From a virus (taxonomy: Duplodnaviria; Heunggongvirae; Uroviricota; Caudoviricetes), in the IMG/VR virus record IMGVR_UViG_2703718843_000005: 7,344 nucleotides of DNA. One strand, given 5' to 3'. Positions 3,237-7,344 of this stretch are shown piece by piece. The notes under the pieces are model-generated. The model was not told where the DNA came from, did not search any database, and saw only the letters and a program-made list of their open reading frames with translations. How positions within the stretch are numbered: the stretch's first letter is position 1; each line of letters opens with the position of its first letter. A program made the position numbers and the translations under genes.

Positions 3237-4430
3237 GTGACCTGGGACGATCACAAGAAGAATTTTGCTCGCCTGGCGCGAGATGGTGGTTACACCATCG
3301 CACAGTATGCCGCCGAGTTTAATCTTAACCCTAATACCGCACGTCGTTATCTCCGTGCCTTCAAAGAAGACACCAGGACAGCGGACAGCCGCAAGCCAAA
3401 TAAGCCTGTCAGGAAACCACTAAAAAGCATGATCATTGATCACGCTAATGATCAACGTGCAGGTGATCACATTGCGGCTGAAATAGCGGAAAAACAAAGA
3501 GTTAATGCCGTTGTCAGTGCCGCAGTCGAGAATGCGAAGCGCCAAAATAAGCGCATAAATGATCGTTCAGATGATCATGACGTGATCACCCGCGCCCACC
3601 TGACCTTACGTGATCGCCTGGAACGCGACACCCTGGATGATGATGGTGAACGCTTTGAATTCGAAGCTGGCGATTACCTGATAGATAACGTTGAAGCGCG
3701 GAAGGCCGCGCGCGCTATGTTGCGTCGGTCCGGGGCCGATGTTCTGGAAACCACTCTTCTGGAAAAGTCTCTTTCTCATCTCCTTATGCTGGAGAACGCC
3801 AGGGATACGTGTATTCGCTTGGTGCAGGAAATGCGCGATCAGCAAAAAGACGATGATGAAGGTACTCCGCCTGAATACCGTATCGCGAGCATGCTAAACA
3901 GCTGTTCCGCGCAGATAAGCAGCCTGATCAACACCATTTACAGCATCCGGAATAACTATCGAAAAGAAAGCCGGGAGGCGGAAAAGCACGCTTTATCTAT
4001 GGGGCAAGCTGGCATTGTTAAGCTGGCATACGAACGAAAGCGTGAAAATAACTGGTCAGTGCTGGAAGCGGCTGAATTCATCGAGGCGCATGGAGGAAAA
4101 GTGCCGCCCCTGATGCTGGAGCAAATCAAAGCCGATCTGCGTGCTCCTAAGACCAATACCGATGATGAGGAAAACCAAACAGCATCTGGCGCTCCATCAC
4201 TTGAAGATCTGGATAAAATCGCGCGAGAACGGGCCGCCAGCCGCCGCGCTGATGCGGCATTGTGGATTGAGCATCGTAGAGAAGAAATTGCCGATATCGT
4301 CGATACAGGTGGTTATGGTGATGTCGATGCGGAAGGCATATCAAACGAAGCATGGCTTGAACAGGATCTGGACGAAGACGAGGAGGAAGACGAAGAAGTT
4401 ACCCGCAAACTGTACGGGGATGATGATTAA
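3237..4430 (+). CDS. pacA: PacA, terminase small (pac-recognition) subunit, 397 aa
   Basis: GTG start with AAAGGA RBS; 397 aa; contains the hexamer-repeat pac site internally; strongly acidic C-terminal tail ([11 protein letters not shown]); stop overlaps the pacB start (TAATG). Confidence 0.9.
3430..3588 (+). other. pac site: phage P1-type packaging cleavage site with Dam-methylatable hexamer repeats
   Basis: Four TGATCA hexamers at 3430-3435, 3437-3442, 3449-3454 and 3464-3469, then three TGATC(G/A) hexamers at 3560-3565, 3572-3577 and 3583-3588 (a further TGATCG at 3611-3616). Each contains GATC. This is the known 4 + 3 arrangement of P1 pac inside pacA. Confidence 0.85.
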
Positions 4431-5914
4431 TGGCCAGAAGTTGCGTAACGGACCCACGTTGGCGCGAGCTGGTGGCGCTATATCGTTATGACTGGATTGC
4501 GGCCGCTGATGTGTTGTTTGGGAAGACACCAACCTGGCAGCAGGATGAGATCATTGAGTCCACGCAGCAGGACGGCAGTTGGACAAGTGTGACCTCCGGC
4601 CATGGTACTGGTAAATCGGATATGACGAGTATCATTGCAATACTCTTCATCATGTTTTTCCCCGGCGCTCGCGTCATTCTGGTCGCTAACAAAAGACAGC
4701 AAGTCCTTGATGGTATTTTCAAATACATAAAGAGCAATTGGGCTACTGCTGTTAGCAGATTCCCGTGGTTGTCGAAGTATTTCATTCTTACAGAAACGTC
4801 TTTTTTTGAGGTGACTGGCAAGGGTGTTTGGACAATATTGATAAAGTCCTGTCGCCCCGGAAATGAGGAGGCGTTGGCTGGTGAACACGCCGATCATCTC
4901 TTGTATATCATCGACGAAGCGTCGGGTGTGAGTGATAAAGCATTCAGTGTGATAACAGGTGCGCTGACCGGTAAGGATAACCGTATTCTGCTTCTTTCCC
5001 AGCCTACGCGACCTTCAGGCTATTTCTACGATTCACACCACAGACTAGCTATTCGCCCGGGAAATCCTGATGGATTGTTTACTGCGATAATACTGAATAG
5101 TGAAGAATCTCCGCTTGTAGATGCAAAATTTATACGAGCAAAACTTGCGGAGTATGGCGGTCGTGATAACCCCATGTACATGATCAAAGTACGTGGTGAA
5201 TTTCCCAAATCTCAAGATGGCTTTCTTCTTGGTCGTGATGAGGTTGAGCGGGCGACGCGGCGAAAGGTCAAGATTGCCAAAGGATGGGGCTGGGTTGCAT
5301 GTGTTGACGTTGCTGGTGGCACAGGACGAGATAAGTCCGTTATTAATATCATGATGGTGTCCGGCCAGCGAAATAAACGCCGTGTAATCAACTATCGTAT
5401 GCTGGAATACACAGACGTTACAGAAACGCAGTTAGCCGCCAAGATTTTCGCAGAATGTAACCCAGAACGGTTCCCGAACATAACCATAGCTATTGATGGC
5501 GATGGCTTGGGGAAATCGACGGCTGATCTAATGTACGAACGCTATGGCATTACCGTCCAGCGTATCCGCTGGGGTAAAAAGATGCACAGCCGTGAAGATA
5601 AAAGCCTTTATTTCGATATGCGCGCTTTCGCGAATATTCAGGCGGCAGAAGCTGTAAAATCAGGGCGTATGAGGCTTGATAAGGGGGCTGCGACTATAGA
5701 GGAAGCATCAAAGATACCGGTAGGGATAAATTCCGCAGGTCAATGGAAGGTGATGTCAAAGGAAGATATGAAGAAAAAACTCAACCTGCACTCACCGGAC
5801 CATTGGGATACATATTGTTTCGCTATGTTGGCGAACTATGTTCCCCAAGATGAAGTGCTTAGCGTCGAAGACGAAGCGCAGGTTGATGAAGCTCTGGCAT
5901 GGCTTAATGAATAA
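4430..5914 (+). CDS. pacB: PacB, terminase large subunit (ATPase/nuclease), 494 aa
   Basis: 494-aa ORF with Walker A-like SGHGTGKS (about nt 4592-4615) and Walker B-like [10 protein letters not shown]; translationally coupled to pacA. Confidence 0.9.
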
Positions 5915-5938: not shown

Positions 5939-6790
5939 CTATTGCGCGCTTTCGGGGTTGTCGTTTACTGGCTGCCCCTTCTTAGTTTTGCGCCTGCGCG
6001 TAACTGATGCGGCTGATTTGACCTTTTTCTCTTCGCGAGTGATGGCAATTTGTTTTTTTACATTTTCAATATCTGCCAGGCGATATATTTTTGCCTGCGG
6101 CCAGCGGTCGCAGATGATCGGTTCTATAGAGTCATAAAGGCTAAATTTTGCTTTCTCAAATTCACCGTTGATGATGATTCCATCTCGGAGAGTTTCATCG
6201 CAGATAAACACGCCACATAGCGGCACATGGTAACTAACTGATTTGCCATCATTGTAGTTAGGGCTACTGGAAATGTAATGGACGCGCAGCATTGTTTCGC
6301 TAAAGCCGTGTACGCGCATACGGAATTTTTCATCCTCCGGGTACTGCTTCATTAGCTCTTTTGTTGCTTCCAGGTTCTCTATGTATTTCGCACTGTGCTC
6401 ATTGATCCCCGCGCTTTTTTGGATGCGAATGTCCTTATCAATCAGATGAATAATGCGGCCAGCGGTCATGTTGACGCTGTTCACAGCTTCTGTCTGATAA
6501 GTTGTAACCTTGCGCACACCGCGAAGGATGTTAGGCACTGGATATAAAATAGTCTTTGGGATATTGAGGTCTGGGTACTGTTCCAGTTCCCGCGCCATTA
6601 AAGTCCATTTATCAATTTCAGCCTGAATGCTGTCAGTTTCTTTGAACGGTAGAACGACAACCGGGCGTACAGGACGACCGTCGCTGGCTGTATCAACGTG
6701 TTGGGCGCGTGCAACAGCTTTTTTTAGAAAGAGATCCCTGAAGCTGACGAACTCCTGGTACAGTTGTTCGCCGTAGACATAATTTATCAT
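5939..6790 (-). CDS. c1: C1 repressor of lysogeny (P1 immC), 283 aa
   Basis: 283-aa product beginning MINYVYGEQLYQEFVSFRDLF..., matching P1 C1 from memory; strong RBS GGAGGAGG upstream on the - strand; convergent with pacB across a 24-bp gap. Confidence 0.9.
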   Translation of the reverse strand: MINYVYGEQLYQEFVSFRDLFLKKAVARAQHVDTASDGRPVRPVVVLPFKETDSIQAEIDKWTLMARELEQYPDLNIPKTILYPVPNILRGVRKVTTYQTEAVNSVNMTAGRIIHLIDKDIRIQKSAGINEHSAKYIENLEATKELMKQYPEDEKFRMRVHGFSETMLRVHYISSSPNYNDGKSVSYHVPLCGVFICDETLRDGIIINGEFEKAKFSLYDSIEPIICDRWPQAKIYRLADIENVKKQIAITREEKKVKSAASVTRRRKTKKGQPVNDNPESAQ

Positions 6791-6884
6791 TGATCCTCCT
6801 CCAGAATTGACATGGTCAATAACGCCCGGCTGAGAAAACCGGTCATTACTGACCTATATTATAGAGGGATCAAACAAAAATAAT

Positions 6885-6901
6885 AGATTTATTAGTGCAT
6901 T
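6885..6901 (-). promoter_or_regulatory. C1 operator-like site between coi and c1 (autoregulatory Op99-type region)
   Basis: Minus-strand AATGCACTAATAAATCT matches ATTGCTCTAATAAATTT at 14 of 17 positions. P1 c1 is known to be preceded by a cluster of C1 operators. Confidence 0.5.
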
Positions 6902-7110
6902 TATTGTGAGTCTAACTGGTTAGTTGCCATGAGATATTCGATTGTGTCAGTGAGGTCATCCAGGTCGTCTTGGGTGATGCGGTACTCCTGATTGGATATC
7001 TTTGAGTAGTGTTCAGCAATGGCGCGGGCTGCGTCGGTTTCGGCAGGGTCTACAGATAAAGCGTTAGAGCAATGTCTAACGTCGTCGATGGTTGGTTGAA
7101 TGAAAGCCAT
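6901..7110 (-). CDS. coi: Coi, C1 inactivator protein, 69 aa
   Basis: 69-aa ORF MAFIQPTIDDVRHCSNALSVDPAETDAARAIAEHYSKISNQEYRITQDDLDDLTDTIEYLMATNQLDSQ immediately upstream of c1 on the same strand, with GAGG RBS; matches P1 Coi from memory. Confidence 0.85.
   Translation of the reverse strand: MAFIQPTIDDVRHCSNALSVDPAETDAARAIAEHYSKISNQEYRITQDDLDDLTDTIEYLMATNQLDSQ
7057..7073 (-). promoter_or_regulatory. C1 operator-like sequence inside the 5-prime part of coi (candidate only)
   Basis: Minus-strand ATTGCTCTAACGCTTTA: perfect 10-bp core ATTGCTCTAA, 12 of 17 matches to consensus overall; lies within coi codons 13-18. Confidence 0.3.
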
Positions 7111-7229
7111 AATTATGCCTCACTGTATTGACAACACAGAGCCTGAAGCTCTGACCTACTGTTTCACCCATGATCCATGCTGGGGTAATCTAACAACATT
7201 GCGCTGTGTGTAAGATGAGCAATGCATAG

Positions 7230-7344
7230 GGAAGGTGCGAATAAGTTCCTGATATGAGATCATCATATTCATCCGGAGCGCATCCCAGAGGGACATCATG
7301 AGCCATCAACTCACCTTCGCCGATATAGTGAATTCAGCACTAAG
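7230..7344 (+). mobile_element. IS5-family insertion sequence, left end (partial, runs off the right edge)
   Basis: GGAAGGTGCGAATAAG at 7230-7245 matches the 16-bp IS5 terminal inverted repeat as I recall it; an InsH-like transposase start follows 68 nt later. Confidence 0.75.
7298..7344 (+). CDS. IS5-family transposase (InsH-like), N-terminal 15 codons, partial
   Basis: ATG at 7298 translates to MSHQLTFAD..., matching the IS5 InsH N-terminus (MSHQLTFADSEF...) for the first nine residues before diverging. Confidence 0.65.
   Translation, partial: MSHQLTFADIVNSAL

Follow-up and report, generated by a model that had tools for sequence, protein, structure and literature searches.

An ISKpn26 insertion in imcA of a P1-like phage-plasmid and its predicted effect on the C1 inactivator gene coi

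We analysed a 7,344-bp stretch of DNA (hereafter the window) that represents a segment of a P1-like phage-plasmid and ends inside an ISKpn26 element inserted in imcA, in the immC control region upstream of coi. The best explanation of this structure, which we consider probable, is that imcA::ISKpn26 was inherited and that the insertion has orphaned coi, leaving it silent or weakly expressed and biasing the phage-plasmid towards lysogeny. The features of the window are the following.

Plus strand: phd/doc, pdcA/B and lpa
3237-4430, plus strand: pacA
4430-5914, plus strand: pacB
5939-6790, minus strand: c1, primary repressor of lytic functions (NCBIfam NF041318 phage_rep_C1, 609 bits, full length)
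6858-6887, minus strand: promoter Pc1, kept (P1 annotation transferred via gap-free alignment)
6874-6901, minus strand: bivalent operator Oc1ab, kept (P1 annotation transferred in the same way)
6901-7110, minus strand: coi, C1 inactivator, 69 aa, intact (open reading frame; annotated as coi in P1 and RCS47)
7057-7073, minus strand: operator Oc1c, inside coi, kept (P1 94349-94365 mapped by alignment; sequence ATTGCTCTAACGCTTTA)
7076-7171, minus strand: imcB, 31 aa, intact (same translation as P1 ImcB; annotation present in RCS47 and P1)
7190-7229, minus strand: 3' remnant of imcA, last 12 codons and stop (P1 alignment; 'ImcA, part 2' of RCS47)
7226-7229, no strand: ATAG target site, left copy of a 4-bp duplication and the sole copy inside the window
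7230-7344, plus strand: left end of ISKpn26 (IS5 family), 115 bp with no difference from the start of the 1,198-bp copy in CP099133.1
7230-7245, plus strand: left terminal inverted repeat (IRL), 16 bp, GGAAGGTGCGAATAAG
7235-7263, plus strand: counterpart, by homology, of the weak inward IS5 transposase promoter (-35 GTGCGA, 17-nt spacer, -10 GATCAT)
7298-7344, plus strand: beginning of the transposase gene (ATG at IS position 69), in divergent orientation to coi
7323-7326, plus strand: 2-nt TA/AT insertion, GATAGT to GATATAGT (alignment with an intact ISKpn26 copy and IS5)

The initial annotation had placed an IS5-type terminal repeat at 7230, 119 bp upstream of the coi start, and an IS5-family element inside immC. 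Both statements proved exact: positions 6790-7229 align gap-free to P1 (NC_005856), and the alignment ends at P1 94521, within imcA. The name IS5 was right for the family and wrong for the element. All full-junction matches are annotated in RefSeq/GenBank as carrying an ISKpn26 family transposase, more than 4,000 plasmids contain ISKpn26 copies that match the 115 IS bases (E = 3e-53 for exact matches), and ISKpn26 is 91.2% identical over its full length to the IS5 copy of the P1 reference genome. On these comparisons the element is ISKpn26, a distinct member of the IS5 family and not IS5 itself. Compared with an intact ISKpn26 copy nearby, the window-type IS has 4 substitutions and a 2-nt insertion. 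The intact copy from CP099133.1 encodes a single DDE transposase of the IS5 family, 326 aa long (NF033581, 367 bits with a cut-off of 140 bits, together with PF01609 and PF05598), of which the window holds just 15 codons, frameshifted after codon 9.

The ends of the element also agree with ISKpn26. The 16-bp inverted repeat of this element, GGAAGGTGCGAA(C/T)AAG, is present at the left end, and the right end, CTTATTCGCACCTTCC, was seen in complete relatives only (the window stops inside the IS). IS position 13 (window 7242) is T here and C in canonical ISKpn26 copies; with T, the left repeat matches the right repeat perfectly (16/16). ATAG flanks the insertion on both outer sides in CP099133.1, LT883139.1, phi456, CP145673.1 and CP029181.1, and empty sites have a single ATAG. 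The insertion point corresponds to P1 94521|94522, within imcA, at this ATAG. The reported target type of IS5 is YTAR, which is not strictly required; ATAG retains the TAG core, but its first position is A and not a pyrimidine, and other copies in the same plasmids are found at TTAG or TTAA. The -35 and -10 hexamers at the left end equal those mapped for the IS5 ins5A promoter (PMC11894529). An Rfam scan of the window returned no known RNA.

On the other side of the junction, c1, Pc1/Oc1ab, coi, Oc1c and imcB follow the P1 order with no indels relative to P1. The c1 gene is collinear with P1 c1 and its product has 3 amino-acid differences from that of P1 c1.100; an operator-like match at 6885-6901 lies within Oc1ab. 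Coi is identical to its RCS47 counterpart and shares 67 of its 69 residues with P1 Coi. The 119 bp between coi and the IS (7111-7229) are native P1 immC, made up of imcB and the last 12 imcA codons. The initial annotation had suggested that sequence was lost upstream of coi, where P1 has imcB and imcA; this is correct for imcA, which is cut at 7229|7230, and incorrect for imcB, which is fully retained. Thus, the window does not have the intact imcA and P1coi/Oc1d upstream of coi that P1 has, and the 5' 74 nt of imcA (94482-94595 in P1) have moved beyond the IS.

A separate difference from P1 was observed in the leader of c1, the stretch from Pc1 to its start codon. Approximately half of the positions in 6818-6870 differ from P1, with nearly identical flanks. 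The leader contains a perfect palindrome, GGTCATTACTGACC, at 6841-6854, where P1, as judged by eye, has another long sequence able to form a hairpin. Phage JL22, which has no IS, shows 99.8% identity to the window over the same region; it presumably shares the leader variant, which would therefore not be linked to the IS.

To see what follows the right edge, we turned to complete relatives. All 7,344 bp of the window match plasmid NZ_CP081712.1 (100% identity), the identity to CP099133.1 is 99.97%, and both records have the layout ATAG[ISKpn26, 1,198 bp]TTAG-dms operon-TTAG[ISKpn26, 1,196 bp]ATAG, with the second ISKpn26 copy in direct orientation and the outer 4-bp repeat present. The ISKpn26-dms-ISKpn26 block is 7,770 bp long, and the window's copy matches its left arm in NZ_CP081712.1. 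The cargo is a five-gene operon of the DMSO/selenate-reductase type (A, B and anchor subunits, a DmsD chaperone and a 4Fe-4S protein), found at 3071-8446 of the segment retrieved from CP099133.1 and at 12277-18700 of that from NZ_CP029181.1. When the block and one ATAG were excised in silico, P1 immC was rebuilt base for base, and the rebuilt sequence contained the remainder of imcA, then P1coi/Oc1d, Oc1e and loxP, and continued into cra, followed by cre; the LexA box also lies beyond the block in the matching plasmid. The second IS terminus and then imcA, loxP and cre, which the initial annotation had suggested looking for past the right edge, are thus all present in these relatives, as is the ATAG duplication, and the functional sequence that P1 has beyond the breakpoint comprises the 5' two-thirds of imcA, P1coi/Oc1d, Oc1e, loxP and P2coi/LexA. 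The identical records make it most probable that the IS copy in the window forms the left arm of a cargo block bounded by IS elements.

The same insertion is widespread. The coi-side junction was found in 78 PLSDB plasmids (~12% of P1-like plasmids) and in 64 of 5,426 complete E. coli genomes; among PLSDB plasmids, the cre-side junction was found in at least 114 and the uninterrupted site in 564. A synthetic junction of the opposite orientation, used as a query, matched no record, i.e., the count for this orientation is 0. ISKpn26 occupies the exact imcA site in about 12-17% of P1-like plasmids. The backbones that carry it vary near the junction, both in the presence or absence of an icd/ant module by c1 and in c1 identity (98% vs 100%). 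One site and one orientation across such nearby-diverging backbones argue for one old insertion, and an insertion hotspot is disfavoured. The comparison points to an inherited imcA::ISKpn26, spread by descent and recombination, and not to a fresh hop. The module itself, an extra icd-like/antirepressor segment between pacB and c1, was observed in RCS47, phi456, CP056627.1, NZ_CP145673.1 and NZ_CP029181.1; it is absent from P1 and from the window, where pacB ends at 5914 and c1 at 5939.

What lies behind the IS differs among carriers, i.e., a single IS, a tandem pair, the dms composite or foreign plasmid DNA. The higher count of the cre-side junction than of the coi-side junction suggests that in some plasmids the coi side was replaced by IS-mediated rearrangement. 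CP056627.1 represents the converse case, with the coi side kept and foreign DNA behind the IS. The inner boundaries of the dms cargo are TTAG/TTAG in CP099133.1 vs TTAA/TTAA in CP029181.1, and these two boundaries suggest separate captures or later trimming. The TTAG/TTAG arrangement would fit entry of an IS-plus-dms circle via homologous recombination with the resident IS, and composite transposition with ATAG duplication would explain the block equally well. When junction carriers were compared with a spread sample of empty-site plasmids, the median sizes were 118 kb and 97 kb, respectively (Mann-Whitney p = 5e-4, for plasmids that are related and not independent). The IS would thus also serve as a recombination dock where cargo gathers.

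The copy in the window differs from most others in its transposase gene. The initial annotation had noticed a 2-nt difference from IS5 near codon 10 and proposed either a divergent family member or a frameshift, and the element turned out to be both: an extra TA/AT is present in 7323-7326 relative to canonical ISKpn26 and IS5, in an element that is itself divergent from IS5. The insertion shifts the frame after codon 9 (MSHQLTFAD) and leads to a stop at codon 38, so the uninterrupted frame of an active, autonomous IS copy is missing. In the restored frame, no ATG, GTG or TTG start was found upstream of Met28, which is itself not preceded by a Shine-Dalgarno sequence. Because of the frameshift and the lack of a usable start in the restored frame, this copy is most likely unable to make its own transposase.

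This exact allele was detected in 11 of 4,185 PLSDB plasmids with an ISKpn26 left end; all 11 are imcA-site copies, and in them the T at IS position 13 accompanies the TA insertion. Carriers of the TA allele other than the two full-length matches include NZ_CP145673.1, NZ_CP081699.1 and NZ_CP099352.1, each with a single 1,198-bp IS, NZ_LT883139.1 with two copies 9 bp apart, and CP056627.1 with the junction to foreign plasmid DNA. We considered whether the TA insertion is unique to the imcA site and rejected this, as an ISKpn26-like copy at an unrelated locus of NZ_CP042894.1 (1501-1615 of the retrieved locus) shares it but has three other differences and lacks the T at position 13. Judged from this copy, the TA insertion either arose more than once or was passed on by conversion between copies.

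In the PGAP annotation, the frameshifted gene is a CDS in two pieces, labelled 'programmed frameshift', with a normal protein accession (e.g., 9149-10131 of retrieved segment L008). We know of no experimental basis for this label. A programmed frameshift was rejected: the native protein would require a +2 hop at codon 9-10, and for this reason we treated the label as an annotation convention. An alternative to a recurrent or converted mutation is that this PGAP annotation rule hides dead IS copies.

The position of the insertion is what gives it a predicted regulatory effect. In the P1 annotation, P1coi and Oc1d occupy 94634-94663, P2coi and its LexA box are at 41-68, just beyond loxP, and no promoter is given between imcA and coi. 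The distance from P1coi/Oc1d to the coi start codon is 239 bp in P1 and ~8 kb in the matching complete plasmid. In CP099133.1, Oc1d, Oc1e and the LexA box all lie ~8 kb from this codon, behind the second IS and an operon of opposite transcription direction. These comparisons show that the insertion separates coi from both promoters annotated in P1, the C1-controlled P1coi and the LexA-controlled P2coi. Between 7111 and 7344, neither a C1-operator-like match nor a LexA-box match was found. Previous studies showed that a LexA site overlaps the coi promoter, tying Coi to the SOS response (PMC4713147), and that induced coi expression alone leads to P1 lysis (PMC13172314).

We infer that coi, deprived of both C1-repressed and SOS-derepressed transcription, would be silent or weakly expressed, while c1 would continue to be transcribed from the autoregulated Pc1/Oc1ab. 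The race between C1 and Coi after infection would then tilt to lysogeny and plasmid maintenance, and the LexA-Coi route of induction would be lost. Since Coi is dispensable and immI of P1 encodes another anti-repressor system, Ant1/2, lytic growth would not be blocked and may proceed through other routes. The initial annotation had gone further and suggested locked-in immunity, which found no support, as coi is non-essential for P1 (PMC10695390), and is contradicted by phi456, a phage with the same junction that was shown experimentally to be spontaneously produced and plaque-forming (PMC10967188). Carriers of the junction are 98-100% identical, and hence decay of coi has no statistical power as a test of silencing.

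Three other explanations were weighed against an inherited insertion with an orphaned coi. One is that the insertion is a neutral passenger, with P1coi and P2coi transcripts reading through the IS, antisense to the transposase gene, and still reaching coi. The coi and imcB genes and the operators are undamaged, carriers are still viable phages, and simple 1.2-kb insertions do exist (phi456, NZ_CP145673.1, NZ_CP032890.1 and others), so that in such single-IS variants read-through from P1coi is conceivable. However, in both full-length near-identical matches (NZ_CP081712.1, 100%, and CP099133.1, 99.97%) transcripts would have to cross ~8 kb that include a second IS and a five-gene operon of opposing direction, and the minus strand of the IS contains three terminator-like hairpins. 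An antisense transcript that is long and untranslated would also be expected to terminate through Rho-dependent polarity. Read-through across the 7.8-kb composite is therefore unlikely, and we consider the neutral-passenger explanation as a whole very unlikely. An assembly artefact, i.e., a contig end wrongly joined to a repeat, would be in keeping with the fact that both ends of the window are at IS elements, as in a repeat-bounded short-read contig. Nevertheless, the identical junction occurs in the 78 complete plasmids and 64 complete genomes, which come from many laboratories, and a matching 4-bp duplication is present at the far IS end. A junction found in so many complete records is neither a chance product nor an assembly chimera, and the probability of an artefact is negligible.

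The remaining explanation is that the IS end or the IS-imcA junction provides a new, C1-unrepressed promoter or an enhancer-like activation, making coi weakly constitutive and raising spontaneous induction. Such an effect is known in principle, as IS5 activates neighbouring genes by several routes (PMC2753651, PMC11894529), and phi456, which has a single IS at the same junction, is described as highly spontaneously induced, with about 10^7 PFU/mL (PMC10967188). This high induction is not predicted by a simple loss of Coi; however, it has many other possible causes, e.g., the extra ant gene by c1. A lenient promoter scan of 7111-7344 gave three weak matches towards coi, each 8/12 with a spacer of 15-16 nt, one in the IS (7288 to 7262) and two in native sequence (7214 to 7187 and 7196 to 7170), but the latter two are P1 sequence with no promoter annotation in P1. 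A strict sigma-70 scan of 6700-7344 and of the full IS of CP099133.1 detected no promoter on the coi strand. It should be noted that the consensus scan is of low power. P1coi, Pc1 and P2coi, all known promoters, score only ~8-9 of 12, and since annotated P1 promoters score no better than the matches, the scan cannot decide on an outward promoter.

The mapped IS5 promoter at the left end faces the interior of the IS and not coi, and shows almost no activity by itself; in the fucAO study, which tested the IRR side, the remaining >90% of IS5 gave no stimulation of the downstream operon (PMC11894529). The silent E. coli operons activated by IS5 (the fucAO fusion promoter; glpFK, bgl) involve the same type of IS, with the left-end transposase promoter conserved. 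In fucAO, however, the activated genes are downstream in the direction of the transposase gene and need a flanking Crp site (PMC11894529), whereas coi lies on the other side, beyond the left end, and is divergent; a mechanism of the fucAO type therefore cannot drive coi. Thus, the IS-derived outward promoter that had been proposed initially for coi found no support beyond the hint from the phi456 phenotype, given the weak, poorly spaced matches and the inward direction of the characterised promoter, and we regard activation of coi by the insertion as unlikely. An orphaned, silent or weakly expressed coi remains the preferred reading.

The imcA::ISKpn26 junction is already known: it is annotated in the RCS47 record and present in many P1-like plasmids. 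RCS47 (FO818745.1/NC_042128.1) has the insertion at the same site, in the same orientation and with ATAG, with coi and imcB intact and the dms operon behind the IS, and its record annotates imcA 'part 2' by the 'IS5D' transposase InsH. Unlike the window, RCS47 does not have the TA insertion, has C at IRL position 13, an IS copy interrupted by IS1 and an extra ant gene between pacB and c1, and is 98.1% identical in the c1-coi region. In phi456 (OR339795.1), a simple 1,196-bp ISKpn26 with ATAG on either side forms the same junction and precedes the remainder of imcA, cra and cre; the TA insertion and the dms cargo of the window's relatives are both absent. The P1 reference genome itself carries an IS5-family element with 16-bp inverted repeats and a 4-bp duplication (mod749::IS5 in NC_005856), but this is IS5 proper, it is located in mod at a TTAG target and has no bearing on immunity. 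The wild-type P1 order is c1-coi-imcB-imcA-P1coi/Oc1d-Oc1e-loxP-P2coi/LexA, in which the window differs by its split imcA. We found no paper on the regulatory meaning of this insertion or its effect on coi.

As it stands, the structure is an ordinary IS insertion, present in annotated records, with a predicted regulatory effect on coi; the P1 annotation and the literature provide a good basis for predicting an orphaned coi. If coi is truly orphaned, the lysis-lysogeny circuit would depart from that of textbook P1 in a considerable minority of natural P1-like phage-plasmids. P1-like phage-plasmids are known vehicles of resistance genes; their inducibility by DNA-damaging antibiotics and the balance between spread by infection and vertical inheritance would then be altered, and the ISKpn26 site would be a recurrent entry point for cargo. 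A more far-reaching reading is that imcA::ISKpn26 is not a passive scar and represents a selected rewiring in approximately 1 in 8 natural P1-like phage-plasmids, in which Coi is freed from C1 and LexA, the plasmid lifestyle is favoured independently of SOS and the site acts as a dock for metabolic cargo (the DMSO/selenate-reductase operon) and resistance plasmids; we think this improbable.

Two further observations concern the junction and the left end of the window. A chimeric 38-aa open reading frame at 7190-7306 on the minus strand has its ATG inside the IS and continues in frame into the last 12 imcA codons, reading MAHDVPLGCAPDEYDDLISGTYSHLPYA-LLILHTAQCC. Its ATG comes from the opposite strand of the sequence surrounding the transposase start; the frame is nearly equal in length to native ImcA (37 aa), and its expression is putative. 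The first base of the window is 37 bp past the 5' end of an IS3-family transposase CDS, which belongs to an element that is complete in NZ_CP081712.1. Both window ends thus coincide with IS elements, which suggests a repeat-bounded contig. Close to this left end, a fragment of an IS3-family transposase gene is located at 35-184 and a truncated gene for the M subunit of a type I restriction-modification system at 248-571, both on the minus strand.
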